From assembly GCA_031459385.1 (NCBI GenBank), contig JAVKIP010000012.1:25432-89431 (forward strand): 64,000 nt of DNA, given 5' to 3'. Source of the stretch: Candidatus Fervidifonticultor secundus. Lineage in GTDB: Bacteria > Sysuimicrobiota > Sysuimicrobiia > Sysuimicrobiales > Humicultoraceae. The translations under genes were made by a program, and so were the position numbers. Shown here in pieces: positions 1 to 19,592 of the stretch; the first letter of the stretch is position 1; each line of letters begins with the position of its first letter. The notes beneath the pieces were generated by a model. That model saw nothing but the letters and a program-made list of their open reading frames with translations, was not told the origin of the DNA and did no database searches.

Positions 1-750
1 CACTGCCCGCGCCAGCGCCGCAGGGGCGGGGCTATCCCAGATGCGGTGAGCGAACATGACGCCGGCGCCACCCGCACGCAGCACACCATCGACGGTGCGC
101 AGCGTGCCTGCGGGTGTTGGGGGCAGCGGGCTCTCCTCGATGATGACCGGGCGCGGACAGGTGGCGACGGCCAGGCCGAACGCCTCGGGCGTCCCAGGGT
201 AGTCGCTCTTGACGAGATCGCCCCCGAGCTCGGCACCAACCCGGCAGACGTACGCCACGCGTTCGGGGTCGAACTGGTGACGCGGGTGCGGATTGACCAG
301 CGGCACCAGCGGCATCCCGTACGCCGCGCACTCCTCCGCGATGCGCCCGAGTTGCATGAGCAGCTCGCCATCGTGCGGGGTGCCCAGGAAGCAGTTCACC
401 GCCACGGCCGAGGCGCCGAGCGCCACCGCGCGGCGGACCGACGTCACCTGCACGCGTCGGGTGCCATCGGCGGTCTCATGTGCGGCGGTCGTGAGCTTCA
501 CGATGAGGCCGGCGCGACCGACAAAGGCCGGCAGGCAGACGTCGACCAGGCCCTCGTGCACGAGCAGCGCGTCGGCGCCTGCGTCCACGAAGAGGCGCGC
601 CGTCGCCACCGGATCGCGCAGACCCGGCAGCAGCCCGCGCGGGATGAAGACGTCTAGCGCGCCGATGAACGTGCGGCCGTCTGGCCGCAGGATGCTGGCC
701 AGCCGGACGGCCTTGCCCGTCTCCAGGGTGCCTACCCCCGCTGCAGCCAC
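1..750 (-). CDS. Divergent class I aldolase, DhnA/FbaB/LsrF-like (3' end runs off the window)
   Basis: Not in the ORF track. Hand translation from GTG 750: ...ETGKAVRLASILRPDGRTFIGALDVF...AGADALLVHEG...GLIVKLT...VRRAVALGASAVAVN...IAEECAAYGMPLV...RVGAELGGDLVKSDYPG..., matching the DhnA-type pattern with the Schiff-base Lys in DLVKSDY. Confidence 0.8.
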   Translation of the reverse strand, partial: MAAAGVGTLETGKAVRLASILRPDGRTFIGALDVFIPRGLLPGLRDPVATARLFVDAGADALLVHEGLVDVCLPAFVGRAGLIVKLTTAAHETADGTRRVQVTSVRRAVALGASAVAVNCFLGTPHDGELLMQLGRIAEECAAYGMPLVPLVNPHPRHQFDPERVAYVCRVGAELGGDLVKSDYPGTPEAFGLAVATCPRPVIIEESPLPPTPAGTLRTVDGVLRAGGAGVMFAHRIWDSPAPAALARAV

Positions 751-2285
751 GGCCAGTCCGCTGGCGGCGTGGCGAATCGGTTCATCTCTGGCACCTCGCG
801 CTGGCACCGTTCGTAGACTTGCCACAGGATGGGCTCGAGCCGGCGGCTGGCGGCGTACGCCCGATCCACCATCGCCGCGAACCCCGGTAGGTGCCCGGCG
901 ATCTCGGCGTAGACCGCCGCCGCATCCACGGTCACCACCCGCCCGCCGTCCACCACCAGGCGGCCGCCGACGAACACCTTGTCCACGTCGCGCCCCGACT
1001 GACAGTAGACCAGGTGGTTGGCGGGCACGTGCCAGGGAATGAACGCCGGCGCATCCAGGCGTAGCAGCACCACGTCGGCGTACGCGCCGGGCGCCAGTAT
1101 CCCCACCTGGCCCTGCAGCAGGGTGCTGCGCGCCCCGCCGCGCAGCGTCGCGTCCAGCACGTCGCGGGCCGACGGCCAGGCCTCCGCCACCGGCGAGGCG
1201 ATCTTGTGGAGGAGGGCCGCGCACTTCATGACCTCGAACATGTTGAACGTGTCGTTGCTGCTGGCACCGTCGGTGCCCAGGCACAGCGGCACGCCGGCCC
1301 GCCGCAGCGCGTGGTACCGCAGGAGGCCGCTGCCGAGTTTGAGGTTGCTGATGGGGTTGTGCGCCACGGCGGTCCCGGCGGCGGCCAGCAGGTCGATGTC
1401 CTGGTCGGTGAGCCAGATGCCGTGCGCGATCGTCAGACGGTCGGACAGCACGCCCAGGTCGGCCAGATAGGCCACCACCGTTTTGCCGTAGAACGCGCGG
1501 CCGGTTGCGACCTGCACCTTGGTCTCCAGCGCATGGGTCAGCAGCGGTACTCGCCACCGCCGCGAGAGGTCGTCCAGGGCGAGGATCAGCTCGGGCGTGC
1601 AGCGCTGCGGGGCAGACGCCGAGAGGGCGATGCGGATGCGTCCGTCGCGGCCGTGCCAGGCCTCCAGCAGCGTCTCGGCCAGGGCGACCAGTTCGCGCGT
1701 CGATTGCACGGGCGCGGCCCCGAGCGCGTCGCGCGCCCAGGCCGGCAGCAGCGCGGCCAGGTACGGGAGCTTCGCCTCGTAGGGCACATCGGTCATGTTG
1801 CAGGCGACGCTGGCCCGCACGCCCACGTCCAGGTAGGCCTGGAGCACCGCCTGACTGCCGGCGACGGTGGCCAGGGGCGCTTCGGACACGTCGTCCTGAA
1901 CCGTGGTCACCCCCGACTGCAGCGCCTCGATGCCCGCCAGGAGCGTGCGCAGGTAGATCAACCGCTCCGGCACCGGGCCGTAGCCCAGGGGCGGGAGCGA
2001 GTACAGCATCCACACTTCCAGCGGCATGCCATCCAGCAGGCCGCGGAAGAGCGTCTCGTCGGAGTGCATGTGGGCGTTGATCAGCCCCGGCATCGCCAGG
2101 CGGCCGCGCGCGTCGACGACCTGCGCCCCTGGCGCCTCGATGCGCGGGCCCACGGCCGCGATCCGCTCGCCGGTGAGCAGCAGGTCGCCCTCGGGGTAGA
2201 CGACATCGTGCCCGTCGCAGGTCACGATGCGCGCGCCGCGGATGAGCGTGCTCGCCGGGCTCCCGCCCGGCGCCGCAGCGGTCAC
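732..2285 (-). CDS. Metal-dependent amidohydrolase, heterocycle deaminase-like (MTA/SAH deaminase, AtzA/TriA group)
   Basis: PGLINAHMHS, THALET (HxxE), AHGIWL, HNPISNLKLGSG and LGTDG motifs. Confidence 0.85.
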   Translation of the reverse strand: MTAAAPGGSPASTLIRGARIVTCDGHDVVYPEGDLLLTGERIAAVGPRIEAPGAQVVDARGRLAMPGLINAHMHSDETLFRGLLDGMPLEVWMLYSLPPLGYGPVPERLIYLRTLLAGIEALQSGVTTVQDDVSEAPLATVAGSQAVLQAYLDVGVRASVACNMTDVPYEAKLPYLAALLPAWARDALGAAPVQSTRELVALAETLLEAWHGRDGRIRIALSASAPQRCTPELILALDDLSRRWRVPLLTHALETKVQVATGRAFYGKTVVAYLADLGVLSDRLTIAHGIWLTDQDIDLLAAAGTAVAHNPISNLKLGSGLLRYHALRRAGVPLCLGTDGASSNDTFNMFEVMKCAALLHKIASPVAEAWPSARDVLDATLRGGARSTLLQGQVGILAPGAYADVVLLRLDAPAFIPWHVPANHLVYCQSGRDVDKVFVGGRLVVDGGRVVTVDAAAVYAEIAGHLPGFAAMVDRAYAASRRLEPILWQVYERCQREVPEMNRFATPPADWPWLQRG

Positions 2286-3121
2286 GACAGGCGCGGCCGG
2301 CGCTCGCCGACCATGCGCATGACCTGACCGACCCCGGCCAGGCGGTGCACGAGGAACAGCACGACGAACGACGCCGCGATCATGGTGGTCGAGACCGCGG
2401 CGACGACCGGGTCGATGTCCGAGACCAGCAGCTGGAAGAGCCGCATCGGCAGCGTCTCCTGCCGCTGCCCGGCCACGAAGATCGACAGGGCCAGGTTGTC
2501 GAACGACTCGATGAACGCGAAACCGGCACCGACGGCCAGGCCCGGGCCCAGCAGCGGCAGCGTTACGTGCCGGAGGATCTGCCAGCGGGTCGCGCCGAGG
2601 TTCGCCGCGGCCTCCTCGAGGGCGGGGTCGACCTGCACCAGGGCCGCGGCGCTGGTGCGGACGACGTAGGGGAAGGTGATCAACATGTGGCTCACCACCA
2701 GCGTGCCCAGCGAGAGCCGCACACCGAGGAAGCCGAAGAAGAACAGCAGCGCGATGCCGAGCACGATCGACGGCAGCATGATGGGCGCCAGGGTGAACGT
2801 GAGGAGGACGTCGCGGCCACGGAAGCGCCCGCGCACCAGCGGGAACGCCGTGAGCACGCCCAGGCCCGCGGCGCCGGCCATGGCCAGCGCGGCCACGACC
2901 AGACTCGTCCGGGCGGCCCGCAGGATCTCCGGGCTGGCTGCCAGCCGGGCGTACCAGCGCAGCGAGAACCCCTCCGGCGGAAAGCTGAGGTACGCGGCGC
3001 TGGTGAAGGACGCCAGCACGACCACCAGGGTCGGCAGGACCAGCAGCACGCCCGCCAGCGCGGCCACCGCCCCCAGGAGGAGCGCGGTGGCGCCATCACC
3101 CACGAGGTGCAGGCGTCTCAC
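2282..3121 (-). CDS. ABC transporter permease, PotC-like
   Basis: FPPEGFSLRWY and an EAA loop (LEEAAANLGA); GTG 3121 overlaps the stop of the upstream gene. Confidence 0.9.
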   Translation of the reverse strand: MRRLHLVGDGATALLLGAVAALAGVLLVLPTLVVVLASFTSAAYLSFPPEGFSLRWYARLAASPEILRAARTSLVVAALAMAGAAGLGVLTAFPLVRGRFRGRDVLLTFTLAPIMLPSIVLGIALLFFFGFLGVRLSLGTLVVSHMLITFPYVVRTSAAALVQVDPALEEAAANLGATRWQILRHVTLPLLGPGLAVGAGFAFIESFDNLALSIFVAGQRQETLPMRLFQLLVSDIDPVVAAVSTTMIAASFVVLFLVHRLAGVGQVMRMVGERRPRLS

Positions 3122-3969
3122 CGCTCGGCCCACCCCAGCCCCAGGCGGCGCACGAGCGCGGTGTAGAGGCCGACCACGACCAGCGAAGTACCCAGCAGCA
3201 CGAGCGAGATCGCCGACAGGATGCCCCAGTCCAGGGACTGCTGGGTCTGCTGGTAGATCAGGGTGGGGAGAATGATGAAGGTCCCCCCACCTACCAGCGC
3301 CGGCGTCGTGAACGAGGCGAAGGCCAGCACGAAGACCAGCGCCGACCCGGCCAGGATGCCCGGCAGGCTCAGGGGCAGGACGACGTGGCGGATGGCCTGG
3401 GCACGCGAGGCCCCGAGCCCCCGCGCCGCATCGTACAGCGACGGATTCTGCCGGACCAGCACGCTGATGATCGGCAGCACCATGAAGGGCAGCATCACCT
3501 GCGCCAGGGCGATCACGACCCCCTGCATGGTGAAGAGGAGGCGCAGCGGCTCGTCGATGATCCCGAGGCCGCGCAGCAGGTCGTTCAGCAACCCCCGGCG
3601 CCCCAGGATCACCAGCCATCCGTACGACCGGACGACCGTGCCGGTGAGAATCGGCGAGAGCACCAGCACCAGCAGCACGGTCTGCCAGGCCGGCGACATC
3701 CGCGTGAAGACGTAGGCGTACGGGAAGCCCAGGACGGCGCACGCCAGGGTGACCGTCGCAGCCATGCCCACCGTCCGCAGCGTGATCCTGAGGTAGAACG
3801 GGTCGGTCACGTAGCGCAGCGGGGGCGCCAGGTTCGGCGCCTCCCAGACGATGGTCCCCCCGCGCACCGGGAAGACGCCGATGGCGGCCAGCAGTACCAG
3901 AGGCAGCACGAACAGCCCCGCCAGCAGCAGCAGCGCCGGTGCGAGCAGCGCCGGTGACCGGCCCACCAT
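3118..3969 (-). CDS. ABC transporter permease, PotB-like
   Basis: VVRSYGWLVILGRRGLLN, LPFMVLPI and an EAA-like loop (YDAARGLGAS). Confidence 0.9.
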   Translation of the reverse strand: MVGRSPALLAPALLLLAGLFVLPLVLLAAIGVFPVRGGTIVWEAPNLAPPLRYVTDPFYLRITLRTVGMAATVTLACAVLGFPYAYVFTRMSPAWQTVLLVLVLSPILTGTVVRSYGWLVILGRRGLLNDLLRGLGIIDEPLRLLFTMQGVVIALAQVMLPFMVLPIISVLVRQNPSLYDAARGLGASRAQAIRHVVLPLSLPGILAGSALVFVLAFASFTTPALVGGGTFIILPTLIYQQTQQSLDWGILSAISLVLLGTSLVVVGLYTALVRRLGLGWAER

Positions 3970-3970
3970 G

Positions 3971-5017
3971 CTAGCGCCCGAACTCCCGGTTGAAGCGGTC
4001 AGTCCAGGCCTGCCGGCTCCGGTTGATGGTCGTCCAGTCCAGAGCCAGCAGCTGCTCCACCTCCTCGGGACGGGTCGGCAGGTAACGGCGCATCGCCGCC
4101 GGCAGGTTCACACCGCTGTTGGTGGGGCCGAAGAAGTACGGCGCCACCGCCGCTTTGAGCTGATAGTCCTTGCTGATGGCTTCGTTGATGAACTGCGCCA
4201 CCAGCTGCGGCTGCCGCGTGTTGGTCACGGCGTTCATGACCGACATGACCACCACCGCGCCTTCCTTCGGCACGACCCAGTCCACGGGCAGCCCCTTCTC
4301 CCGCAGGGTGAGGATCGTGTTGTTCCACAGCGGGCCGATCGCCACCTCATCGCGCTCGAACAGGGCCGCCAGAGCCCCGGGGCGGGGGGCCACCGCCGAG
4401 ACGCTGCCCATCAGGGTCCGGTAGGCGGCGAAGCCGGGCTCGATGTTGTCCTCCCCGCCGCCGTGCAGGCGGGCCAGCATCACCAGGAAGGCGACTCCGA
4501 GGGAGCTGTTGAGGTTCACGGTGCCCACCTGTCCCTTGAACGCGGGCTTGAACAGGTCCCGCCACGACGTGGGCGGCGTCCGCACCTTCCGCGTATTGTA
4601 GGCCAGGCCGACCACCGAGTAGGCCTGCGGCACGCCGTAGCCGCGGGTCACCCGGCGGTACGCGGGGTAGACCTGCGCCAGGTTGGGGATGGTCTTCTCG
4701 TCCAGACCCTGCACGATGCCGTCCGCGGCGGCCTGCAGGTGCGGCCCCTCGTCGAGCACGATGACGTCGAAGGGCGGCGCCGCCGGCGATGCCTTGATCT
4801 TGGCGATCACCTCCAGCGACAGCGACGGGACCAGCGTCACCCGGGCGCCCGTGCGGCGCTCGAACGGGTCGGCCAGGAACCAGCGGAACGGCTCGTCAAG
4901 CTGCCCGCCGTAGGACGACATCACGATCTCGGGGGTTGGCGCCGCGGGTAGCCCCCCGGGCGCGAGGGCCACCCACGCCAGCACCACCACCAGCCCCGCC
5001 AGCAACATCGATCGCAT
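3971..5017 (-). CDS. ABC transporter substrate-binding protein (PotD/SBP_bac_6-8-like)
   Basis: Signal peptide; GLAYNT..PTSWRDL and VVPKEGA motifs; GGAGG RBS 7 nt before ATG 5017. Confidence 0.9.
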   Translation of the reverse strand: MRSMLLAGLVVVLAWVALAPGGLPAAPTPEIVMSSYGGQLDEPFRWFLADPFERRTGARVTLVPSLSLEVIAKIKASPAAPPFDVIVLDEGPHLQAAADGIVQGLDEKTIPNLAQVYPAYRRVTRGYGVPQAYSVVGLAYNTRKVRTPPTSWRDLFKPAFKGQVGTVNLNSSLGVAFLVMLARLHGGGEDNIEPGFAAYRTLMGSVSAVAPRPGALAALFERDEVAIGPLWNNTILTLREKGLPVDWVVPKEGAVVVMSVMNAVTNTRQPQLVAQFINEAISKDYQLKAAVAPYFFGPTNSGVNLPAAMRRYLPTRPEEVEQLLALDWTTINRSRQAWTDRFNREFGR

Positions 5018-5029
5018 CACCGCACCTCC

Positions 5030-6097
5030 TCATGCGTCCCGGCGCGCGCCGGGCGGAGTGCCGTACCGGTACTTGCGCGAGACCTCGTACCGCGCGCTGC
5101 CACGCAGGTGGGACCGCCGGTCGGGATCCAGCCCCCGGGCCCGCGCCGCCCAGTACGCCAGCCACTGAAGCGGCACCGCGGCGACCAGCGGCGAGGCCCA
5201 CGGCGCCACCTCCGGCAGCGAGAGGTGGACGTCCCCCCCCGGCGCCCCGCCGACGAGCCAGACCGGCACGCCCAGCTCGTGCAGGTGCAAGGCCGCGGCC
5301 GCCGCCCGCTGGGACGATGGCGCATCGTGCGCGACCAGGACGACGGGCTGCTCGGTCCGCACCACCCAGTGGTGCTCGTGAAAGAACTCCTCGGTCTCGT
5401 GGGCGATCCCGACGATGTCGGCGACCTCCACCAGCTTGGCCGCGCCGTAGCGCGCCGTGGCCTCCTGGCATCCCATCCCCAGGACATGCCAGATCGCCGT
5501 CGGCGCGTGGGCGCCCACGGCACCCCGAATCGCCCCTTCCAGGGCCAGCGCGGCTGGGAGGGCAGCCACGGCGGCGCGCAGGTCGCCTGCGGGGGCGCTG
5601 TCCGGCACCACCGCCAGCAGCATCAGGACCAGCAGCGAGGCGGTGTAGGTCACGGTGCCGGCCAGGAACGGCGCCGGCTCGGCGATCCCCAGCGCGACGA
5701 CCCGATCGGCTTCCCGCGCCAGCGGGCTCGCCGGCGCGTTGGTCACGGCCAGCACGCGGGCGCCGCGGGTCCGCGCCACACGCGCCGCAGCCACCGACGC
5801 GCCCACGGCGCCGGAGGCAGACAACACGATGACCAGATCGTCGGGCCCCAGGTCGGCGGGCGGATAGGCGGCCAGCTCCTGGGCCAGCAGCGGCTGGTAG
5901 GGCACGCCGGCGTACCGCCGGAACACGTCGGCGGCGGCGAGCGGCGCGAAGTAGGAGTCTCCATGCCCGGTGGCCCAGAGGCGGCGGGCGCCTGCTGCGG
6001 CGACGCCGGCCGTGGCGCGGATCTCGTCGTGGCGCGCGAGCAGGGCCTCCAGCGCGTCGGGCTGGCTCTGGATCTGCGCGCGCATCGGCCCGCTCAC
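5030..6097 (-). CDS. Double-SIS-domain protein (GlmS isomerase domain / FrlB deglycase-like)
   Basis: MRAQIQSQPDAL, TGHGDSYFA, LSASG, AVTNAPASPLA, AAKLVEV and EEFFHE motifs. Confidence 0.85.
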   Translation of the reverse strand: MSGPMRAQIQSQPDALEALLARHDEIRATAGVAAAGARRLWATGHGDSYFAPLAAADVFRRYAGVPYQPLLAQELAAYPPADLGPDDLVIVLSASGAVGASVAAARVARTRGARVLAVTNAPASPLAREADRVVALGIAEPAPFLAGTVTYTASLLVLMLLAVVPDSAPAGDLRAAVAALPAALALEGAIRGAVGAHAPTAIWHVLGMGCQEATARYGAAKLVEVADIVGIAHETEEFFHEHHWVVRTEQPVVLVAHDAPSSQRAAAAALHLHELGVPVWLVGGAPGGDVHLSLPEVAPWASPLVAAVPLQWLAYWAARARGLDPDRRSHLRGSARYEVSRKYRYGTPPGARRDA

Positions 6098-7041
6098 TGC
6101 GTGTGCTCCAGCACCCAGCGCCACCGCCGGTCGCGCTCGGTGGGATCGGCCAGGATCAGGCCCGCGAGGCCGAAGCGCTCCACCGCGAAGGAAGCCGACA
6201 CCGCCCCGCAGGCGGCTGCCTGGACCACGTCGCGGCCATCCAGCAGACCGGCGAGCATCCCGCCACAGAACGCGTCGCCCGCACCAGTGGGATCCCGGGC
6301 GCGCACCGGCACCGCGGGCACGACGTGGCGGCGGCCGGCCCCGTCGCCGACCAGCGCGCCGTGGCGGCCCAGTTTGATCACCGTGGCCCGGCGCGCAAGC
6401 GGCGCCAGCTGCGCCAGCGCCTCGTGGGGCGAGAGCTGCGGATATCGGGCCCGAACTTCCTCCCGGCTGGGCAGGAAGACGGCCACCGGTTCCAGCAGCG
6501 CCCGGAGCGCGTCGGGGCTCGCGTCGCCCATCAGGTGCGGGGACGGGTCCAGGGTGAGCGGGTCCATGTGGGCCAGCGCCCCCACCAGCGCGCGCTGCAC
6601 CTCCGGGGGCAGCGGTGCCAGGTGCGCGGCGCGGGCGCGGAGGTAGCGCGGCGGCAGGTGCGCCGGCGACAGCCGCAGCTGGCGGATCGGCTCGCCGGTG
6701 TCAGCCGGCAGGTAGGGCTGTGGGGCACCCCTGGTATCGGGCGCCCACAGGCGCTGCGTGCGCTCGCCGTCGGCACCATAGAAGAACTCGGTAACCGACG
6801 CCGGCACGTTCACCGGAACGAGCCCCTCGGTGTCGATCTCCAACGCCGCCAGCACGTCGGCCCAGCGCGCGGGCAGGCCCGTGCCGCAAAACGCCACCAC
6901 GCCGGCGCGCAGGCCCCAGATGTGCGCGCCCGCCGCGGCGTAGATCGCGTTGCCGCCCAGCTGGCGCCCGGCGGTCGTGCCGTCGGCCGCGTACACGATG
7001 TCGACCGTGCACCCGCCGGCGGTGATCAGATCGAGCCTCAT
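6094..7041 (-). CDS. PfkB-family carbohydrate kinase
   Basis: GGNAIYAAAG N-terminal motif, VIKLGRHGA and the DPTGAGDAFCGG PfkB signature. Confidence 0.9.
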   Translation of the reverse strand: MRLDLITAGGCTVDIVYAADGTTAGRQLGGNAIYAAAGAHIWGLRAGVVAFCGTGLPARWADVLAALEIDTEGLVPVNVPASVTEFFYGADGERTQRLWAPDTRGAPQPYLPADTGEPIRQLRLSPAHLPPRYLRARAAHLAPLPPEVQRALVGALAHMDPLTLDPSPHLMGDASPDALRALLEPVAVFLPSREEVRARYPQLSPHEALAQLAPLARRATVIKLGRHGALVGDGAGRRHVVPAVPVRARDPTGAGDAFCGGMLAGLLDGRDVVQAAACGAVSASFAVERFGLAGLILADPTERDRRWRWVLEHTQ

Positions 7042-8114
7042 GTCGCGAAGACCGTGCACGCTTGCGGGTCGGCCAGGACCACGCCGACCGCCTCGCCCAG
7101 GGCGAACGTCCGCGCGTCGGGGGAGCGCACCGCGGTGATCTTCAGCCGCACCCCGCTCGTGGCCTCGACCTCGTATTCCAGCAGCGGCCCGATGGGGCGC
7201 ACGAAGCTGACCGCCCCGGGCAGCCCCCCAGGCTCGCCGGCAGAACCCAGGCGGAGGTTCTCGGGCCGCACCACCAGCGTCGCGCGCTGGCCCGGCCGCA
7301 GGTCGCCAGCCAGCGGCACCAGGAACGTGACGCCGGGGTGGCGGAGGCGCACCGCACCCGGCGTGACCTCGACGACCTCCACGGGGATGAAGTTGCTGCC
7401 GCCGACGAAGTCCGCCACGAAGGGATCCCGGGGGTTGTCGTAGATCTCGGTCGGTCCGCCGCTCTGCACGATGCGGCCGGCGCTCATCACGGCGATCAGG
7501 TCGGACATCGTCAGCGCCTCTTCCTGGTCGTGCGTCACGAACACGGTGGTGATGCCCAGCTGCCGGATGATCTTCTTCACGTCCACCTGCATCTGCAGCC
7601 GGAGCTTGCGGTCCAGGGCGCCGAACGGCTCATCCAGCAGCAGCACGCGCGGCTGGATCGCCAGCGCGCGCGCCAGCGCCACACGCTGCTGCTGTCCACC
7701 CGAGAGCTGGTGCGGGTAGCGGTGCCGCAGCTCCTGCAGCCCCACCAGCGCCAGCATCTCGTCGGTGCGGCGCGCCACCAGGTCGGCGGGCGCGTGCCGC
7801 ATCCGCAGGCCGAAGGACACGTTCCGCTCGACGGTCATGTGGGGGAACAGCGCGTAGTTCTGGAAGACCATGCCGACCTGGCGCCGGTTGGAAGGCACGT
7901 GGGTGATCACCTCGCCCCCCAGGAGCACATCGCCCGCATCAGGCATGATGAACCCGGCGACCAGCCGCAGCAGCGTCGTCTTGCCGCAGCCCGAGGGGCC
8001 GAGCAGGGTGACGAACCGACCGGCGGGCACCGTAAACGAAAGATCGTCGAGCGCCGTCGTCTCGCCGAACCGCTTGGTGACCTCCCGCAGTTCCACGTCC
8101 ACGGGTGCGATCAC
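7038..8114 (-). CDS. ABC transporter ATP-binding protein, PotA-like with TOBE domain
   Basis: Walker A GPSGCGKT, LSGGQQQR signature, LLLDEP, VTHDQEEA. Confidence 0.95.
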   Translation of the reverse strand: MIAPVDVELREVTKRFGETTALDDLSFTVPAGRFVTLLGPSGCGKTTLLRLVAGFIMPDAGDVLLGGEVITHVPSNRRQVGMVFQNYALFPHMTVERNVSFGLRMRHAPADLVARRTDEMLALVGLQELRHRYPHQLSGGQQQRVALARALAIQPRVLLLDEPFGALDRKLRLQMQVDVKKIIRQLGITTVFVTHDQEEALTMSDLIAVMSAGRIVQSGGPTEIYDNPRDPFVADFVGGSNFIPVEVVEVTPGAVRLRHPGVTFLVPLAGDLRPGQRATLVVRPENLRLGSAGEPGGLPGAVSFVRPIGPLLEYEVEATSGVRLKITAVRSPDARTFALGEAVGVVLADPQACTVFAT

Positions 8115-8162
8115 TCCCTCCGGCGCGGCTCCTGCCGGCGTGGCACGCCGGCCGCCCCGCGC

Positions 8163-9320
8163 TCAGGCCTGCTGCAGCCCCCGGATGGCGCTGGCGCGGA
8201 TCAGGCGGCCGCCGTCGCGCCGGCGCAGGGGCACCACGGGCTGACCGCGGTGGAGCGCCAGCGCGATGCCCAGCACCTGCAGGGGGACGACGTAGGGGAG
8301 CGGCGCGTAGCCCTCCCACACGTCGCCGTCTACCGCCAGCACCGCGGCCGCCGCGGCGCACACGGCTGTCTCCTGCGGGCTCGTGACGGCAATGGCCACG
8401 CCGCCGTCGGCACGAATCGCCTCCAGGATCTCGGCGCCACGGTCTGTGCTGTCGCCCGGCGGGAGGACGGCGACCGCCCGGGTGCGGGCGCCCTCCACCA
8501 TGGTGAGGAAGTACTCGAGGTGGGCCCACTCTTCCAGGTGCTGGGGCACCCCGCACATCGGCACTTCCTCCACGACTTTGGCCGCGCCGAAGAGCGCCGT
8601 GCCGTAGGCTGGCCCGGCGCCCAGATAGTAAATGCGCTCGGCGTCGCCCACGAGCGCCAGCACCGGGGTCACCGCGTCTTGGGCGATCTGCAGCGTCCGC
8701 TGCGCCAGCACAGCAGCGGCCTCGACCGCCTGCTCCTCCCGCGCGACCTCGCGCTCGGTGAGCCGGCCGCGCGCCAGGCCCAGGGACCAGGCGAGGGCGA
8801 ACAGCGCCACCAGCGTCCCGACGTACTCCCTCAGGTGGCGCGCGACACGGGCCGTGGGCCCCGCTGGCCCGCCGGCGGCGACGACCGGCCGGGCGACGCC
8901 CGCAGCCGCCAGCCGGTGCAGCGGCGAATCGGGCGCACCGGTCAGGGCCAGCGTGCGCGCCCCGGCTCGCGCTGCCAGCGCCACCGACTCCAGGACCCGC
9001 GACGTGGTTCCGGAGTTCGACACGCCTACCACGGCCACGTCAGGCCCGAAGCCTGCAGCCGCATAGCGTCCGCACTCCAGTGCGTCCATCGGCTCGCAGG
9101 GGAGCCCGGCGAAGCGCTCGACGGCGAGCCGCGCGGCTACCGCCGCGAACAGCGAATCGCCGCACCCGCTGATCACCAGGCGTCGGATACTACCCGCGCC
9201 CGCCGCCTGCAGCGCGGTTGCCCACCCTGCGCGCGCGTCCCGGGTTGTCTGACGCACCAGCGCCGGCAGGTCGAAGGCGCGCGCGAATACGGCCAGCCGC
9301 TCCTCTACGCCGCCGGTCAT
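8163..9320 (-). CDS. Second double-SIS-domain protein (sugar-phosphate isomerase/deglycase-like)
   Basis: SGCGDSLFA, VSNSGTTSRV, LGAGPAYGTALFGAAKVVE and EEWAHLEYF motifs; ATG 9320 overlaps the upstream stop. Confidence 0.85.
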   Translation of the reverse strand: MTGGVEERLAVFARAFDLPALVRQTTRDARAGWATALQAAGAGSIRRLVISGCGDSLFAAVAARLAVERFAGLPCEPMDALECGRYAAAGFGPDVAVVGVSNSGTTSRVLESVALAARAGARTLALTGAPDSPLHRLAAAGVARPVVAAGGPAGPTARVARHLREYVGTLVALFALAWSLGLARGRLTEREVAREEQAVEAAAVLAQRTLQIAQDAVTPVLALVGDAERIYYLGAGPAYGTALFGAAKVVEEVPMCGVPQHLEEWAHLEYFLTMVEGARTRAVAVLPPGDSTDRGAEILEAIRADGGVAIAVTSPQETAVCAAAAAVLAVDGDVWEGYAPLPYVVPLQVLGIALALHRGQPVVPLRRRDGGRLIRASAIRGLQQA

Positions 9321-10615
9321 GTGCTCTGCCCCGCCGTCCCTGCCCCAGACCCCTGCGGGGCCAGCGTCCGCGCCGGCACTGCGGCCTCTCGCGGCCAGAC
9401 GCCCACGTCGCGCGGGATGAGCCGGCCGCCCTGCACCACCAGGACCGGCGCGCGCAACACGCGGAGGTCGGCCAGCGGGTCGCCGCGCACCGCGACGACG
9501 TCCGCGAGCCGTCCCGGCTGCAGCGCACCGACCCGGTCCTGCCACCCCAGCACCGCGGCTGCGGCGGCCGTGGCGGCCCGGATCGCCACCGCCGCCGGTA
9601 CGCCGGCCTCGGCCATCAGCCCCAGGCCGTCGGCGAGGTCATCGGGCGAGAGCACCGGCTGGCCGCCGTAGTCGGTGCCGAACGCGATGGGCACGCCGGC
9701 GCTGCAGGCCAGGCGCAGCGTCGCCCTGCCGAGGTCCAGCGCCTCCGCCGCGGCCTGGGCGTCGGCCGGCGCGCAGCCGAGGGCGACGCCGCGGGTGGCG
9801 TAGCGCTCGCGCACCAGGAGGTCGCAGACCAGGGTGGTGCCGCGGCTCGCCATGGTCTCCGCGGTGGAGGCGTCGAGGCCGTAGCCGTGCTCGATGCTGT
9901 CCACGCCGGCGGCCACTGCGCGGCGGATCGCCTCCGCACCCACCGCGTGACAGGCCACGCGCAGTCCCATGCGGTGGGCCTCGTCCACCAGCGCCGCCAG
10001 TTCCTCCGGCGAGAAGTGCGGGACCATCGAGCGCGGCCCGCCCGAGGCCGCGATCTTGATGACGTCGGCGCCGGCCCGCACCATCTCGCGCACCGCCCGC
10101 CGGCAGTCGTCGGGGCCGTCGGCGAGCCGGCAGGACTCCCGCGCCCGCACCAGGCCTGCCGGCAGCCAGGCGCGGTCGCCCTGGCCACCGGTCTGGTAGA
10201 TGCCCTTGACCGCCACCTGCAGGCGCGGGCCCGGCACCTCCCCGGCAGCGATCGCCCGCTTCACGGCGACCGCCGCCTCGCTCCCCAGGTCGCGCGCGCT
10301 GGTGAACCCGGCTGCCAGGATCCGCGCGGCGTCCCGCGCGGCGCCGATGGCCCGCAGGCCGTCGCTCATCAGGACCCAGTCGGTGCGATTCAACGAGCGC
10401 CACCCGTCCAGGTGCAGGTGCGCGTCGATGAGTCCCGGCAGCAGCATGCACCCCGGGAGGTCGATGACGCGGGCGTCAGGCGGCGCCTGGGCGAGCGCCG
10501 TGGCTCCCACGGCAGCGATGCGCTCGCCGGCGACGAGCACGGCGCCCGGCCGCTGCGCCGGCGCGCCGGTGCCGTCCAGGTAGGCCTCGGCCCGCAGCAA
10601 CGTCGTCTCCGTCAC
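9317..10615 (-). CDS. Amidohydrolase-family protein (Xaa-Pro dipeptidase/carboxypeptidase-like)
   Basis: PGLIDAHLH, GFTSARDLG, GADVIKIAASGG, VACHA, SIEHG and FGTD motifs. Confidence 0.85.
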   Translation of the reverse strand: MTETTLLRAEAYLDGTGAPAQRPGAVLVAGERIAAVGATALAQAPPDARVIDLPGCMLLPGLIDAHLHLDGWRSLNRTDWVLMSDGLRAIGAARDAARILAAGFTSARDLGSEAAVAVKRAIAAGEVPGPRLQVAVKGIYQTGGQGDRAWLPAGLVRARESCRLADGPDDCRRAVREMVRAGADVIKIAASGGPRSMVPHFSPEELAALVDEAHRMGLRVACHAVGAEAIRRAVAAGVDSIEHGYGLDASTAETMASRGTTLVCDLLVRERYATRGVALGCAPADAQAAAEALDLGRATLRLACSAGVPIAFGTDYGGQPVLSPDDLADGLGLMAEAGVPAAVAIRAATAAAAAVLGWQDRVGALQPGRLADVVAVRGDPLADLRVLRAPVLVVQGGRLIPRDVGVWPREAAVPARTLAPQGSGAGTAGQST

Positions 10616-11439
10616 GTGACCCTCCGGCTGAGCTGCGCCACGCGCGCCAGGCCCAGCAGCCGGCTGCCCACCAGCAGCACCAGGAGCGCCAGCCCGATCT
10701 CCAGGCTGGAGACCGCGCCCACCAGGGGGTTGATGTCGTAGCGCAGCAGGTAGAAGAGCACGATGGGCAGCGGCCGCAGCCGGTCGCTGGCGGTGAACAG
10801 CGAGACCGTGAAGTTGTCGAAGGACAGCAGGAAAGCGAACGCAGCGCCCGCCGCGATCCCGGGCCAGAGCTGCGGCAGGACCACGTGCACGAACTTCTGG
10901 ACCTGGCTGGCCCCCAGGCCCTGCGCCGCCTCCTCGTAGGTGGGGTCGAGGGTCGCCAGGCGCGCGCTGGTCATGCTCACCACGAACGGCAGCGTGACCA
11001 CCACGTGGCTGACCACCAGCAGGGGGAACGACAGCGCCAGCCCCAGCAGCATGTAGAAGAAGAGCAGCCCGATGCCGATGACGATGCCCGGCAGCATCAG
11101 CGGCGACAAAATGAAGGTCAGCAGGGCCTCCCGGCCACGGAAGCGCGCCCTCGTCAGCGGGAACGCCGCCGGCACGCCCAGGAGCAGGTCGACGGCCACG
11201 ACCAGGGCGGCGAGCTTGAAGCTGAGGGCCGCCGCCTGCCGGACTTCCCAGTTGCCCGCCATCGCCGCATACCAGCGCAGCGACCACCCCTGGGGCGGGA
11301 ACGTGAGGAACTCCGAGGCGTTGAACGACGTGACGACGACCAGTACGCTGGGCGCCACCAGCGCCACCAGCGAGACGCCCGCCAGCAGCCCCAGGACGGC
11401 GGCCAGCAGCGCGTCGGCCGGCACCCGGCGCGCGCGCAT
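10612..11439 (-). CDS. ABC transporter permease, PotC-like
   Basis: FPPQGWSLRWY and an EAA loop (YEEAAQGLGAS). Confidence 0.9.
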   Translation of the reverse strand: MRARRVPADALLAAVLGLLAGVSLVALVAPSVLVVVTSFNASEFLTFPPQGWSLRWYAAMAGNWEVRQAAALSFKLAALVVAVDLLLGVPAAFPLTRARFRGREALLTFILSPLMLPGIVIGIGLLFFYMLLGLALSFPLLVVSHVVVTLPFVVSMTSARLATLDPTYEEAAQGLGASQVQKFVHVVLPQLWPGIAAGAAFAFLLSFDNFTVSLFTASDRLRPLPIVLFYLLRYDINPLVGAVSSLEIGLALLVLLVGSRLLGLARVAQLSRRVT

Positions 11440-11473
11440 CACGGGCGCCGGTCCCCCAGCAGCGCGAACGGCC

Positions 11474-12343
11474 TCACCGCATCCACCGCAGCAGCCGCGC
11501 CGTAGCGCGGTTGAACGCCCACAGCATCACCATGGCTGTCCCCAGCAACAGCGTGGCCAGCACGGCGCCGCTGTTCCACTGCAGCAGCGCCGAGATCTGC
11601 TCGAAGATGAACGTGGGGATGACGGCGAACGACCCGCCGCCCAGCAGTGCGGGCACTGCGAAGTTTGTGTACGAGATGACGAACACCAGCGCCGCGCCCG
11701 TGAGCACGCCGGGCAGGCTCAGGGGGACGATGACGTGGAAGAAGGTCTGGGCCCACGTGGCGCCCAGGCCCGCTGCTGCCTCCGTCAGGCTCCGGTCCTG
11801 CCCCTCCAGCGCCGCGATGATCGGCAAGATCATGAAGGGGAGCTGGATCTGCGTGAGCCCGATCAGCACCGCCGGCATCGTGTAGAGGATCTTCACCGGC
11901 TCGTCGATCACCCCGAGCCGGAGCAGGGCGGCGTTGAGCAGGCCCTTCTGACCGCCCAGGATGATCATCCAGCCGAACGTGCGCACCACCGCGTTGGTCA
12001 GCAGCGGGGCCAGAACCACCACGAGCAGCACCCCTCGGGCGAGGGGGCCCACACGGGTGAACAGATAGGCCACCGGATAGCCGAACAGCAGACACAGGCC
12101 CGTGGCGGCCAGTCCCATCCAGAACGTCCGCAGGAAGATCCGGTAGTAGAACGGATCGCCCAGCACCCGGGCGTAGTGGTCCAGGGTCCACGAGCCGGGT
12201 ACGACTCGCCCGCCGCGGATCTCCACCAGCCCGAACGCGAACAGCAGCACCAGCGGCACGGCCAGGAAGATCACGAGGTAGGCCACGGCCGGGGCGAGCA
12301 GCCCCTGCTGGCCCCACGCCGGGCTGCGCCGCGCGCGCGGCAT
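11474..12343 (-). CDS. ABC transporter permease, PotB-like
   Basis: VVRTFGWMIILG and LTEAAAGLGA motifs. Confidence 0.9.
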   Translation of the reverse strand: MPRARRSPAWGQQGLLAPAVAYLVIFLAVPLVLLFAFGLVEIRGGRVVPGSWTLDHYARVLGDPFYYRIFLRTFWMGLAATGLCLLFGYPVAYLFTRVGPLARGVLLVVVLAPLLTNAVVRTFGWMIILGGQKGLLNAALLRLGVIDEPVKILYTMPAVLIGLTQIQLPFMILPIIAALEGQDRSLTEAAAGLGATWAQTFFHVIVPLSLPGVLTGAALVFVISYTNFAVPALLGGGSFAVIPTFIFEQISALLQWNSGAVLATLLLGTAMVMLWAFNRATARLLRWMR

Positions 12344-12346
12344 CGG

Positions 12347-13396
12347 CTAGCGGGCGAACTCCCGGTTCCAGCGCTCGACGATGGCGGCGCGCCGGGGCAC
12401 CACCACCGGCCAGTTCACGGTCTGGAGCCGACGCACCTCGCCCAGCGTCGTCGGGATGTACTCGGCGGCCTCGGACGGCACCGGCACTTTGACGTTGGTG
12501 GGCCCGAAGAAGTACGGCTTGGCTGCCGCCCGGGTCTGGTACTCGACGCTCAGGACCCGATCGAGCAGCTCGTGCGCCAGCTGCGCGTGCTGGCTGCCCC
12601 GGAGGATGCTCAGGAACGAGATGATGGCGATGGCGCCCGGCTGCGGCTTGACGAACTTGATCGGCAGGCCCTTGCTGGCCAGCACGGCTGCGTCGGTGCT
12701 CCACAGCGGCCCGACCACGATCTCCTCGCGCTCGAACAGCTGGGCGAGGGCCGTGGGGTTGGGCGCGATGACGAACGGCTGCAGCTGCCTGAGCGCCTGC
12801 CAGGCCGGGTCCAGGTTCCCCTCGTCGCCGCCGTTGATCTTGGCGGTGGCGACCAGGAACCCCAGGCCCAGGTTCGAGGCCGTCGACGTGAGCCCCACCT
12901 TGCCCCGGTACGCCGGGTCCCAGAGGTCCTTCCACGAGGTGGGGGCCCTGCTGACCCGCCTGCTGTTGTAGGCGATGCCGATGAGCGAGTAGGTGGCGGG
13001 CACGCCATAGCCCTGACTCTTCTCGACGAACGCCTGGTGCACGTGCTTGAGGTTGGGCACCAGGTCGGGATTCGTCCGCTCCAGCAGGCCGAGCCCGATC
13101 AGGCGCAGGTGCGGCGGCTCCCCGTTCGGCGCCAGGTCCACCGGGGAGGGCCGGCCGGCGGCGACGGCCGCCTGCACCCGCGCCACGTACTCCCCGGCCT
13201 CGTCGGGCACCAGCCGCACGCGCGTGCCGGGATGCGCGCGCTCGAACGGCTCCACCAGGAAGAACCGGTGCGGCTCCTGGGACGGCCCTGCATAGCTGAT
13301 CATTACGATCTCGCCGCCCTGGCCTCGCGCCGGCGGCGTCCCCACTGCGCCGGCGATGGCGACGACGCCCAGCACCAGCAGCGCGCTCTGCCTCAT
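12347..13396 (-). CDS. ABC transporter substrate-binding protein (paralog of 3971..5017)
   Basis: Signal peptide MRQSALLVLGVVAIA; GIAYNS..PTSWKDLW and YFFGPTN; ATG overlaps the gntR stop. Confidence 0.9.
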   Translation of the reverse strand: MRQSALLVLGVVAIAGAVGTPPARGQGGEIVMISYAGPSQEPHRFFLVEPFERAHPGTRVRLVPDEAGEYVARVQAAVAAGRPSPVDLAPNGEPPHLRLIGLGLLERTNPDLVPNLKHVHQAFVEKSQGYGVPATYSLIGIAYNSRRVSRAPTSWKDLWDPAYRGKVGLTSTASNLGLGFLVATAKINGGDEGNLDPAWQALRQLQPFVIAPNPTALAQLFEREEIVVGPLWSTDAAVLASKGLPIKFVKPQPGAIAIISFLSILRGSQHAQLAHELLDRVLSVEYQTRAAAKPYFFGPTNVKVPVPSEAAEYIPTTLGEVRRLQTVNWPVVVPRRAAIVERWNREFAR

Positions 13397-14238
13397 CCGA
13401 CTCCCTCCTCCACGGGGGGCGATAATCCGCCGCCCCTGCGGTCGTCTGACGCGCGGGTCCCGATGAACCGGAACACGTTGGCCACAAACCGGAACCGATC
13501 GCCGCGGAAGATGGCGTCGGTGGCCTCGATGGGCACGTCGCCTTCCAGGAACGTCATGCCCTCCAGGCGGAACAGCGGCGCGCCCCGGGGCACCTCCAGC
13601 AGTCGGGCGAGCCGGCTGGTGGCGACGATGGGCGAAATCCACCGCTCCTCGCGGAACAGGTGCAGCCCCAGGGTGTTCTCCAGCACGTCGTAGAACGACG
13701 CGTGCTCCAGCGGGAGCTGCGCCAGGCGGCGGCCGACGGCCTCGGGGAAGAGCGAGGTCGCCATGCACGCCGGCATGCCGTCCACGAAGCGCAGGCGGGT
13801 GATACGGACGTACCGGGTGGGCTCATCGGGCGCGCGGCCGAACCGCTGATTCAGGGTCGGAGTGCCGGCGATCTCCTGGATGCCCAGGATCCGCGAGCGC
13901 ACCACCAGCCCCTGCCGGGCCATCTCGCGGGTGAACGAGACCAGGTTGGTGAGACGGCGCTCGATGGGCGGCCCGGTCACGAACGTGCCCTTGCCCTGCA
14001 TGCGGGTGACGATGCCATCTCGCGCCAGGTCGTGGAGCGCCTTGGTCACGGTGATGTGGCTGACGCCGAAACGCTCGCAGAGGTCCTGCGTGGGCGGCAG
14101 GCGATCCCCCGGGCGCAGGAGGCCGGTGGCGATCATGCCCGTGATGGACTGCTTGATCTGCTCGTAGAGGGGCCGGCCGATGCCGCGCTTCAACGACGGC
14201 TGTGGGCTGCCAGTGGACACTGATGCGCCTGTTGCCAT
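13393..14238 (-). CDS. GntR-family (HutC/UTRA) transcriptional regulator
   Basis: PLYEQIK, LRPGDRLP, FGVSHITVTKAL and QGKGTFV, followed by a UTRA-like domain (SFTREM...FRGDRFRF). Confidence 0.92.
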   Translation of the reverse strand: MATGASVSTGSPQPSLKRGIGRPLYEQIKQSITGMIATGLLRPGDRLPPTQDLCERFGVSHITVTKALHDLARDGIVTRMQGKGTFVTGPPIERRLTNLVSFTREMARQGLVVRSRILGIQEIAGTPTLNQRFGRAPDEPTRYVRITRLRFVDGMPACMATSLFPEAVGRRLAQLPLEHASFYDVLENTLGLHLFREERWISPIVATSRLARLLEVPRGAPLFRLEGMTFLEGDVPIEATDAIFRGDRFRFVANVFRFIGTRASDDRRGGGLSPPVEEGVG

Positions 14239-14255
14239 GTTTATATGTCAACATG
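14236..14255. promoter_or_regulatory. Candidate GntR operator (AT-rich palindrome)
   Basis: CATGTT-tatatgtc-AACATG inverted repeat over the gntR start, in an otherwise very GC-rich background and just downstream of the candidate promoter at 14273..14300. Confidence 0.55.
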
Positions 14256-14272
14256 AAAACTTCGGTACTGCA

Positions 14273-14300
14273 CTTCCCCGGACCTGGTCCGATCTCCTTC
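14273..14300 (-). promoter_or_regulatory. Candidate sigma-H-like promoter for the gntR-ABC operon
   Basis: GAAGGA-N18-GAAG on the minus strand; the same spaced motif recurs before many genes in the window. Confidence 0.45.
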
Positions 14301-14308
14301 TCTGCCGG

Positions 14309-15688: not shown

Positions 15689-15714
15689 GCTGCCGTCCTC
15701 AGGCGCGCCCGCAT

Positions 15715-15788
15715 CAGGGCACCCTGGCACCAGGGCTCACGGGCGCAAGGGCTCACCGGCACAAGGGCTCACGGACGCCAGGGCTCAC
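15715..15788. repeat. Intergenic degenerate tandem repeat, 16-bp period, about 4.5 copies
   Basis: cagggcaccctggcac / cagggctcacgggcgc / aagggctcaccggcac / aagggctcacggacgc / cagggctcac. Confidence 0.8.
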
Positions 15789-19584: not shown

Positions 19585-19592
19585 CGCCGCCG

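Follow-up and report, generated by a model that had tools for sequence, protein, structure and literature searches.

We describe here a 64,000-nucleotide (nt) stretch of the genome of Candidatus Fervidifonticultor secundus (contig JAVKIP010000012.1, positions 25,432 to 89,431; below, the window), and in particular 14 co-directional genes that lie on its minus strand within positions 1-14238 and run from 14238 towards 1. They encode a GntR/UTRA regulator, two sets of ATP-binding cassette (ABC) importer subunits, two amidohydrolases, two double-SIS proteins (SIS-1 and SIS-2), a PfkB-family sugar kinase and a class I aldolase, and they form a tightly packed operon that is conserved in relatives. 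With start codons placed at the in-frame starts nearest the preceding stop, and hence inferred, 8 of the 13 junctions overlap (seven by the 4 nt of ATGA or GTGA and one by 19 nt), and the remaining five are gaps of 1, 3, 9, 31 and, at most, 48 nt. The guanine-plus-cytosine (GC) content of the window is about 73% and long open reading frames (ORFs) are consequently open in all six frames; GC by codon position (third high, second low) identifies the minus strand as the coding strand for all genes of 1-21190 and rules out a plus-strand reading of them. Genes were named by Pfam and NCBIfam profile searches, the latter with curated equivalog cut-offs, and in a scan of all 14 genes none of the operon's enzymes or transporter subunits reached such a cut-off. 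The gene list and order given by an initial annotation were recovered exactly for all 14 genes, as was its view of a co-directional operon with mostly overlapping stop and start codons. Co-transcription, the boundaries of the operon and its regulation are predictions from the sequence.

An alignment of 26 SIS-1 relatives led us to 64 loci from species-representative genomes, with which all 19 window proteins were compared by tblastn. One of them, locus L003 of an Armatimonadota metagenome-assembled genome (MAG), carries an allantoinase gene and all 14 operon genes with their order unchanged, the proteins being 58-86% identical to those of the window. Its flanks differ from those of the window, with a pyruvate kinase gene upstream on the other strand and, downstream of the 273-amino-acid (aa) aldolase, a gap and then a CBS-domain gene, which suggests that the operon ends at the aldolase and that the xanthine dehydrogenase genes found upstream of it in the window are not a fixed neighbour. 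Three further loci (L001, L002 and L004) lie on short contigs that keep the same order over their length, and identities across L001-L004 are 55-87% overall. The combination, whose absence from all other genomes the initial annotation had named as grounds for abandoning its proposal, is complete in L003 and partial in these three. Between the window and L003 the transporter proteins are 79-87% identical and the SIS proteins and kinase 58-68%, the reverse of a frequent pattern in catabolic operons, and the GC content of the window is about 9 points the higher of the two (73% against 64%).

Enzymes, importers and regulator

By profile and alignment scores both SIS proteins belong to the GlmS-isomerase/FrlB branch of the double-SIS proteins, and both are more distant from FrlB, NagB-II and AgaS than from GlmS. 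SIS-1 (385 aa, 8163-9320) matches Pfam SIS and scores 82-84 bits with GlmS models (cut-offs 381-418), while SIS-2 (355 aa, 5030-6097) matches Pfam SIS in two stretches (8.3e-27) and GlmS at 96 bits, likewise below cut-off. The isomerase domain of E. coli K-12 GlmS aligns with SIS-1 at 26% identity over 324 aa (E 4e-15) and with SIS-2 at 25% over 359 aa (E 2e-19), E. coli FrlB at 32% over only 91 aa (E 2e-9) and at 21% over 302 aa (E 6.5e-9), respectively, and the nearest solved structures of both are GlmS isomerase domains. FrlB identity was rejected for SIS-1 and SIS-2 on scores of 34.6 and 24.1 bits against a cut-off of 430 (NF008481). Identity with the glucosamine-6-phosphate or galactosamine-6-phosphate deaminases NagB-II and AgaS was also rejected: the NagB-II model NF046059 gave SIS-2 52.1 bits against 430 and did not have SIS-1 among the proteins listed for it, and E. 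coli AgaS reached E values of 0.005 with SIS-1 and 2e-4 with SIS-2. The two window proteins are themselves only about 41% identical over 102 aa.

Excerpts of a study of FrlB (PMC10285752) describe a general-base Glu and a general-acid His that stand exactly 16 residues apart in FrlB (E224/H240), GlmS (E488/H504) and FraB (E214/H230) and that come from different subunits of the dimer, together with a Ser/Thr-rich phosphate loop, S-x-S-G-x-T, and an upstream Ser (S46, S91, S93, G94 and T96 in FrlB). The Glu-x15-His pair is kept at canonical spacing in both window proteins (K248/E251/H267 in SIS-1 and K221/E224/H240 in SIS-2), with the three SIS-1 residues unchanged throughout the 26 aligned homologues, and the phosphate loop of SIS-1 (CGDS plus SNSGTT) matches this feature fully. 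In the 64 related loci, Glu and His are both retained by 82 of the 89 SIS segments; of the other seven, four carry Lys instead of Glu and three show a gap at His. The Lys-for-Glu copies are all of the SIS-2 type (L018 near 8841, L033 near 4364, L034 near 13124 and L038 near 1543), and each adjoins a SIS-1 with intact Glu and His, as would be consistent with a heterodimer in which one site is live and the other dead. That the active site spans the dimer, together with these four loci, suggests as a remote possibility that the two proteins pair as a heterodimer whose active sites differ.

Close relatives of SIS-1 number about 30, at 58-68% identity, and nearly all of them are metagenomic (5.8-billion-protein collection); an exhaustive search of 1.84 billion representatives returned 76 clusters at E<=1e-30 and 733 at E<=1e-10. 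The names on the family's entries that we encountered are generic only, such as ‘SIS domain-containing protein’. Two SIS-1 relatives, P0248 (701 aa) and P0274 (486 aa), are fused to an FGE-sulfatase-like or a phosphopantetheine-attachment (carrier protein) domain, which hints that some members of the family act outside catabolism.

The kinase (315 aa, 6094-7041) matches Pfam PfkB (PF00294, 4.2e-23) over its C-terminal half only, and its best NCBIfam match is the IolC N-domain at 70.8 bits against 300. It keeps DPTGAGD at residue 250, an instance of the DxxGAGD motif of the PfkB family that we take to be the catalytic/anion-hole signature of PfkB/ribokinase enzymes. FrlD identity was rejected on 34.4 bits against a cut-off of 247 (NF007321), and E. 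coli FrlD aligns at 32% identity over only 106 aa (E 1.4e-8). The comparison with FrlB and FrlD made in the initial annotation does not extend to orthology: by NCBIfam scores and blastp against E. coli, neither the SIS proteins nor the kinase are orthologues. A PfkB gene stands alongside the SIS-1 homologue in 49 of all 64 loci and in 36 of the 41 long ones (those of at least 18 kb; co-occurrence here and below means more than 50% query coverage at E<=1e-8), and in the natural 707-aa fusion protein P0234 a PfkB domain (residues 59-298) precedes a SIS-1-like one (residues 365-680). Co-occurrence and fusion together back a predicted coupling of kinase and SIS protein. An Atlas cluster named ‘pfkB family carbohydrate kinase/SIS domain-containing protein’ is mostly from Actinomycetota.

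Amidohydrolase A (432 aa, 9317-10615) is of the Cc2672/prolidase (carboxypeptidase) type. It matches Pfam Amidohydro_1 (1.4e-44) and the Xaa-Pro dipeptidase model NF051886 (304.2 bits, cut-off 500), its nearest solved relative is the L-arginine carboxypeptidase Cc2672 (PDB 3mtw, 4.9e-61), with ochratoxinase at 6.9e-36, and it has an HLH metal motif at residue 66. Amidohydrolase B (517 aa, 732-2285; Pfam Amidohydro_1 5.1e-47) is of the TRZ/ATZ (chlorohydrolase/deaminase) type, and its PDB and NCBIfam neighbours all fall in that group: 258 bits at best with N-ethylammeline chlorohydrolase and 5'-deoxyadenosine deaminase models (cut-offs 522-609), and structures 3lnp (7.5e-50), 3hpa (2.8e-45) and the 8-oxoguanine deaminase 7ww2 (5.5e-42). 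It carries HMH at residue 72 and HALE at residue 251, which we take to be the metal-binding HxH and the HxxE motifs of TRZ/ATZ enzymes. Relatives at 40-50% identity occur in Mycolicibacterium, Streptomyces and others, under generic names.

The aldolase (1-750) is of the DhnA/ADH-synthase type and is cut by the window edge after the first 250 of about 273 aa, so that, judging from the 273-aa L003 orthologue, some 22 C-terminal residues lie beyond it; that orthologue is 83% identical and is also the last gene of its operon. The window protein matches the Pfam DeoC/LacD family (4.2e-22), PRK07226 (172.9 bits against 241), TIGR01949 (143.9 against 299.45) and, in the PDB, MJ0400 (4.3e-37), where its Lys (DLVKSDY against DIVKTSY) aligns with position 184, presumably the Schiff-base Lys. 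Seven of the 64 loci have a DeoC-type (deoxyribose-phosphate) aldolase, which exceeds the TIGR00126 cut-off of 117.3 bits with scores of 197 and 157, and in L034 and L052 an aldehyde dehydrogenase gene lies beside it. A putative aldolase step thus recurs through non-orthologous enzymes, of the DhnA type in the window and L003 and of the DeoC type in these seven. A dedicated aldolase of either kind points to the release of a sugar phosphate other than plain glucose-6-phosphate.

Both importer sets resemble the PotABCD and PhnSTUV systems, with which they share subunit architecture and which supply the nearest NCBIfam models for the ATPase, permeases and substrate-binding proteins (SBPs). SBP1 (349 aa, 12347-13396; Pfam SBP_bac_8/6/1) has a hydrophobic, signal-like N-terminal segment, scores 55.3 bits with PotD (cut-off 582) and 51 with PhnS (395), and matches the unliganded binding protein 3pu5 (2.4e-20) and PotD (about 5e-13) in the PDB. 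Its permeases, 1a (PotB-like, 289 aa, 11474-12343) and 1b (PotC-like, 276 aa, 10612-11442), are Pfam BPD_transp_1 proteins with 198.1 bits against 348 for PotB NF007044 and 152.8 against 326 for PotC NF007047. The second set comprises SBP2 (PotD/PhnS-like, as is SBP1; 349 aa, 3971-5020; Pfam SBP_bac_8/6/1/11), permease 2a (PotB-like, 283 aa, 3118-3969) and permease 2b (PotC-like, 279 aa, 2282-3121), both permeases again BPD_transp_1. With identities to the first set of 40% for the SBPs and 49% and 51% for the a and b permeases, the two sets are, on these values, old paralogues. The PotA-like ATPase (358 aa, 7038-8114; ABC_tran and TOBE_2 domains; PotA NF006987 365.5 bits against 482) is the product of the only ATPase gene in the operon and presumably serves both permease pairs. 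Set 1 is the set that resembles the importers of distant loci, whose SBPs match SBP1 and not SBP2, at 45-54% identity, and SBP2 is the operon's best-conserved protein in L001-L003 (84-87%). In contrast to PotABCD and PhnSTUV, the window subunits all stay below the equivalog cut-offs, and two SBP/permease sets with one ATPase are set among sugar-phosphate enzyme genes.

The regulator (281 aa, 13393-14238; Pfam GntR 3.3e-21 and UTRA 2.8e-28) belongs to the GntR/HutC family. Its best NCBIfam match is NF008491 (124 bits, cut-off 269), E. coli FrlR aligns with it at 26% identity over 227 aa (E 2e-32), and its L003 orthologue is 72% identical. Between the allantoinase stop codon and the gntR ATG lie 70 nt that hold the sole AT-rich patch of the region, a minus-strand element immediately 5' of the gntR start codon (14240..14262; CATGTTGACATATAAAC-ATG) that includes an ATGT-TG-ACAT inverted repeat. 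L003 has a similar AT-rich element at the same position, CATATTAATATGTAAATC-ATG, with the palindrome CATATTAATATG. A 10-mer of the element is not significant alone, with one match in the window and at least one in 32 of 100 shuffles, and support for the element is limited to its position and AT-richness being kept in L003. We consider it the operon's probable promoter/operator. A sigma-70 consensus scan of 1-16000 gave no promoter-like site, Rfam had no family at gathering score within 1-24000, and a terminator scan returned five sites against 2.2 expected, of which at least four lie inside coding regions and which we treat as noise.

A smaller core in distant loci

Beyond the close relatives, a smaller core recurs in at least eight phyla; it consists of a pair of SIS proteins of the GlmS/FrlB type with one PfkB kinase or two and an ABC importer. 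Loci at 28-41% SIS-1 identity come from Alpha- and Gammaproteobacteria, Rokubacteria, Chloroflexota, Acidobacteriota, Actinomycetota and one Spirochaetota MAG. Two architectures recur, SIS1-SBP(PotD-like)-SIS2-PfkB-PotA-PotB-PotC-PfkB and, in cultured Aureimonas, Oceaniglobus and Pseudoruegeria, DeoR-SIS2-PfkB-chlorohydrolase-DppABCDF-SIS1-PfkB-TRZ/ATZ amidohydrolase-PuuE-like-racemase-PuuE-like. Within the 41 long loci a SIS-2 accompanies the SIS-1 homologue in 25, and an ABC importer is present in most, with a PotD-type SBP in 16 and a Dpp-type SBP in 14. Frequent neighbours also include a PuuE-allantoinase-like protein (21/41 long loci, 25/64 of all), a TRZ/ATZ amidohydrolase (20/41 and 24/64) and a protein of the Asp/Glu/hydantoin-racemase family (17/41 and 20/64). 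The PuuE-like proteins score 279-323 bits with the PuuE model TIGR03212 and do not reach its cut-off of 424.6.

The initial annotation had treated the 14 genes as one unit, and in this respect it needs correction, as the set is not invariant: amidohydrolase A occurs in 3 of the 64 loci (L001-L003; 1 of the 41 long ones), the DhnA-type aldolase in 1 of 64 (1 of 41), and the second importer set only in close relatives. These absences, the unequal conservation of transporter and enzyme proteins between the window and L003, and the likeness of the transporter parts to PotABCD and PhnSTUV above all else could be taken to mean that the operon is a mosaic, in which an importer of the polyamine or phosphonate type, a sugar-phosphate module unrelated to it and some stray amidohydrolases are neighbours that have no substrate in common. 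We regard this as very improbable. More than half of the junctions overlap and no gap exceeds 48 nt, the ATPase gene is placed between enzyme genes, and the entire order is kept in L003 in another genomic setting. Moreover, the interleaving of SIS, SBP, SIS, kinase and PotABC genes recurs across Proteobacteria and Rokubacteria, and Pfam and NCBIfam find no polyamine or phosphonate catabolic genes among the operon's 14.

Two of the loci have features of their own. L010 has SIS-1 paralogues in a tandem array of three, together with an ABC importer of the sugar (CUT1) type, under a GntR/UTRA regulator, and at L018:7512-8738 a regulator that combines a LacI-type DNA-binding domain with an IF-2B/ribose-1,5-bisphosphate-isomerase-like domain lies directly upstream of SIS2-SIS1-PfkB.

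Proposed pathway and kinship to known systems

Pathways that join a kinase to a SIS deglycase are the known bacterial means of using Amadori compounds and amino sugars, both of them plentiful in decaying plant material, in processed food and in the gut. The families present in the operon and the recurrent coupling of importer, kinase and SIS protein point to uptake of a sugar-amine, its phosphorylation and a SIS-type isomerization with release of amine or ammonia. The initial proposal of a sugar-amine conjugate finds backing in sequence, since both SIS proteins lie in the GlmS/FrlB branch and have the Glu-x15-His pair (excerpts of PMC10285752). By analogy, and with slightly better than even confidence, we read these genes as an operon, inducible by its substrate, for the catabolism of a small sugar-amine conjugate rich in nitrogen, be it an N-substituted amino sugar, an Amadori- or Heyns-type compound, or a glycosylamine. 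The aglycone is probably a nitrogen-rich amide, amidine or ureide; the recurrent TRZ/ATZ, PuuE-like, racemase-like and allantoin-pathway neighbours suggest amidine, ureide or hydantoin character. The operon would work like the Frl, Fra and Moc fructosamine pathways or the Aga and Nag amino-sugar pathways, and appears to belong to none of them.

Alongside the observed gene content and order, conservation, families and intact catalytic motifs, we infer substrates, regulation and a sequence of steps as follows. The two PotD-like SBPs, each with its own permease pair and both with the shared PotA-like ATPase, would bring in one or two related ligands. The two metallo-amidohydrolases would then trim the N-linked part, A by cutting an amide to a C-terminal amino-acid-like group and B by hydrolysing an amidine, guanidine or heterocycle C-N bond. 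The PfkB kinase would phosphorylate the sugar, and both SIS enzymes would carry out ketol isomerization and Schiff-base hydrolysis to give amine or ammonia and an ordinary sugar phosphate, which the class I aldolase would split into pieces for central metabolism. GntR/UTRA would repress the operon until a pathway intermediate binds.

Several observations weigh against this reading. No equivalog cut-off was passed, so each step is assigned by analogy. The most familiar ligands of PotD-type SBPs are polyamines, aminoethylphosphonate, iron and thiamine, and the similarity of SBP1 to the mannopine-binding protein 5l9s is marginal (6e-4). The phosphate loop of SIS-2 (GHGDS plus SASGAV) keeps Ser and Gly and has Val in place of the usual Thr, and the aldolase has Asn at the position of MJ0400 Tyr153, a residue whose role we presume as we do that of Lys184. 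Release of glucose-6-phosphate, as by FrlB, would need no dedicated aldolase, and the presence of one speaks for an unusual sugar or another chemistry. A SIS-1 occurs without SIS-2 in 16 of the 41 long loci, and the two therefore need not act together; and because the gene set varies, some genes may be lineage-specific additions with a different job. Even near relatives differ, with an extra PfkB gene (about 3572-4520, 38% identical to the window kinase) between SIS-1 and the ATPase in L002, and with the Cc2672-type amidohydrolase absent and the kinase preceding the ATPase in L004, such that the operon is apparently being remodelled among them.

Among characterized systems, FrlABCD-FrlR of E. 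coli and frlBONMD-frlP of B. subtilis share with the window a GntR/UTRA regulator, a PfkB kinase and a double-SIS protein with Glu-x15-His, and likewise phosphorylate before they deglycate. The B. subtilis frl system is also coupled to an ABC importer, as given in excerpts of PMC12632257 and PMC10285752. The proteins are not orthologous, however, and the operon departs from Frl by a second SIS protein, a pair of PotD-type importer sets, two amidohydrolases and an aldolase, and by the lack of an FrlC-type epimerase. In the Salmonella FraBDAE-FraR system, under a GntR regulator, the asparaginase FraE trims an amide before the kinase FraD and the SIS deglycase FraB act. Compared by description, Fra and the window operon are alike in placing amide trimming before kinase and SIS deglycase under such a regulator, whereas the trimming enzymes of the window are amidohydrolase-superfamily metalloenzymes and not an asparaginase, its transporter is of another type, and it has an extra SIS protein and an aldolase.

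Santhopine, according to excerpts of PMC4231840, is an Amadori compound of decaying plant matter. The Moc/Mot and Soc systems of Agrobacterium plasmids resemble the window operon in pairing catabolism of Amadori-type opines in soil and rhizosphere with ABC import, and the mannopine SBP (PDB 5l9s) has the PotD fold. MocD is a SIS deglycase and MocE a kinase. In contrast, the window operon has no oxidoreductase or cyclase of the Moc/Agc type. A link to plasmid-borne opine clusters was dropped after searches of 72,556 plasmid records, in which SIS-1 had no match at E<=1e-20 and its Aureimonas homologue had three weak ones at 30-32% identity.

The AgaS/tagatose-bisphosphate aldolase, NagB-II and archaeal GlmD pathways share a GlmS-branch double-SIS protein, an amidohydrolase-superfamily deacylase, a PfkB-type kinase and a terminal aldolase, and it is conceivable that the window encodes an Aga/Nag-type pathway outright. 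An N-acylated hexosamine would then be imported, deacylated and phosphorylated, a SIS deaminase/isomerase would yield a ketose phosphate, and a second phosphorylation and an aldolase would follow. Consistent with this, the SIS proteins score higher with GlmS and NagB-II models than with FrlB, and SIS-2 matches the solved glucosamine-6-phosphate deaminases 1j5x (4.2e-10) and 8eol (3.2e-9). Many distant loci have two different PfkB kinases, as a scheme with a 6-kinase and a 1-kinase requires, one of which (in L014) scores best with the tagatose kinase model; the aldolase falls in the archaeal class I fructose-bisphosphate aldolase/DhnA group, and the NagA and AgaA deacetylases are amidohydrolase-superfamily enzymes too. 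Yet the window has one kinase only, and a sugar imported by an ABC system, not by the phosphotransferase system as in Aga and Nag, arrives unphosphorylated, so that two phosphorylations would have to precede a bisphosphate aldolase. Neither amidohydrolase is NagA- or AgaA-like (the NagA model covers only residues 22-68 of A, at 3.7e-7), the aldolase is a class I DhnA enzyme and not class II KbaY, and the similarity to E. coli AgaS is marginal in both SIS proteins. This route would also leave the recurrent TRZ/ATZ, PuuE-like and racemase neighbours and the seven DeoC genes unexplained, and we judge it unlikely.

Returning to the sugar-amine conjugate, full-text literature searches found no description of this gene combination, and the expectation that no characterized pathway would have the same gene set is borne out by those searches and by the NCBIfam scores. 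All components come from known superfamilies and the overall logic is known as well, and the gene set is thus a variant and not categorically new. A muropeptide substrate was rejected, as the SIS proteins are not MurQ-like and N-acetylmuramate-6-phosphate etherase models match at 1e-5 or weaker; inosamines or rhizopine, streptothricin-like or peptidyl-nucleoside antibiotics, glycation-derived hydroimidazolones and pterin glycosides were not adopted, there being no evidence for them. If the proposed function is correct, the operon and the wider core would extend the kinase-SIS logic to a new substrate class, probably one with a nitrogen-rich aglycone, in lineages of soil and marine bacteria, most of them uncultured (Armatimonadota, Rokubacteria, Chloroflexota and several Proteobacteria). 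A function for SIS-1 would annotate a whole small orphan family and its recurrent partners, and because cultured carriers of the core exist (Aureimonas sp. Leaf454, Jiella sp. LLJ827, Oceaniglobus roseus and Pseudoruegeria sp. SK021) the question can be tested directly.

Purine genes upstream and the rest of the window

Directly upstream of the operon and on the same strand lie purine-catabolism genes, as the initial annotation had noted, with three of their products above curated cut-offs. The allantoinase AllB (473 aa, 14309-15730, minus strand; TIGR03178, 543.7 bits against 357.85) is adjacent to gntR, and a 78% identical orthologue is also directly upstream of gntR in L003; it is probably a separate transcription unit and possibly has a functional link to the operon. 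Further upstream, still on the minus strand, come the xanthine dehydrogenase Mo subunit PucD (15785-18463; 880.2 bits against 783.65), 8-oxoguanine deaminase (18187-19590; 595.6 against 532), the xanthine dehydrogenase [2Fe-2S] subunit (19593-20150) and the FAD subunit (20072-21190), the three subunit genes belonging to a PucD-type xanthine dehydrogenase operon. The 8-oxoguanine deaminase gene is thus inserted between the genes of the FeS subunit, which lies upstream of it, and the Mo subunit. In its longest form the Mo-subunit ORF reaches about 277 nt into the deaminase gene, and the PucD match starts at residue 104; the true start of this subunit is probably further downstream.

With these genes in view, the operon could be part of a pathway for an N-glycosyl ureide or hydantoin, or for a ring-opened or oxidised nucleoside, in which the TRZ/ATZ and allantoinase-type enzymes would dismantle the heterocycle, the kinase would act on the sugar, the SIS proteins would serve as phospho-glycosylamine deglycases ahead of the aldolase, and the nitrogenous remains would enter the purine/allantoin route. 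Such a pathway is quite unlikely in our view, even with the position of the operon downstream of xanthine dehydrogenase, 8-oxoguanine deaminase and allantoinase genes on the same strand, the allantoinase adjacency kept in L003, and the recurrence of PuuE-like, racemase-family and TRZ/ATZ genes in the wider set in its favour. Also in keeping with it are AllB-like genes in 4 of the 64 loci (L003, L052, L060 and L061), allantoicase in two (L034 and L060), the DeoC enzymes of seven loci, with aldehyde dehydrogenase beside them in two, and proteins of the LOG/SLOG (‘lysine decarboxylase-like’) family, which includes nucleotide N-glycosidases, in seven (L010, L032, L037, L042, L060, L061 and L062). 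On the other hand, neither such a compound nor such a route is documented in the literature examined, and GlmS/FrlB-type enzymes are known for 2-amino-aldose and 1-amino-ketose phosphates and not for N-glycosides; we know of no phospho-glycosylamine deglycase activity in this SIS family. The xanthine dehydrogenase genes do not adjoin the operon in L003, the window aldolase is of the DhnA and not the DeoC type, nucleoside hydrolases and phosphorylases are absent from the operon, the PuuE-like proteins stay below the curated cut-off, and co-location could reflect shared nitrogen regulation only. For the conserved core itself (two SIS proteins, PfkB, TRZ/ATZ, PuuE-like, racemase-like and aldolase), an undescribed route for N-glycosyl ureides, hydantoins or amidines, for instance ring-opened or oxidised (deoxy)nucleosides or glycosyl-ureas, is likewise a long shot. 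The idea that a released heterocycle feeds purine catabolism, raised in the initial annotation, is circumstantial: the recurrent TRZ/ATZ, PuuE-like, racemase and AllB/allantoicase neighbours speak for it, and the separation from xanthine dehydrogenase in L003 against it. In Chloroflexota and in one Streptosporangiaceae locus the LOG/SLOG genes adjoin PfkB and SIS genes.

Beyond the purine block a divergent plus-strand gene begins near 21506. Close to that block, a phosphoribosyltransferase gene (23085-23684, minus strand) lies near an adenine deaminase ORF (23436-25526, plus strand). The adenine deaminase domains begin near residue 184 and the two ORFs overlap, so that at least one of the starts is wrong. 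The rest of the window consists of ordinary chromosomal housekeeping genes.

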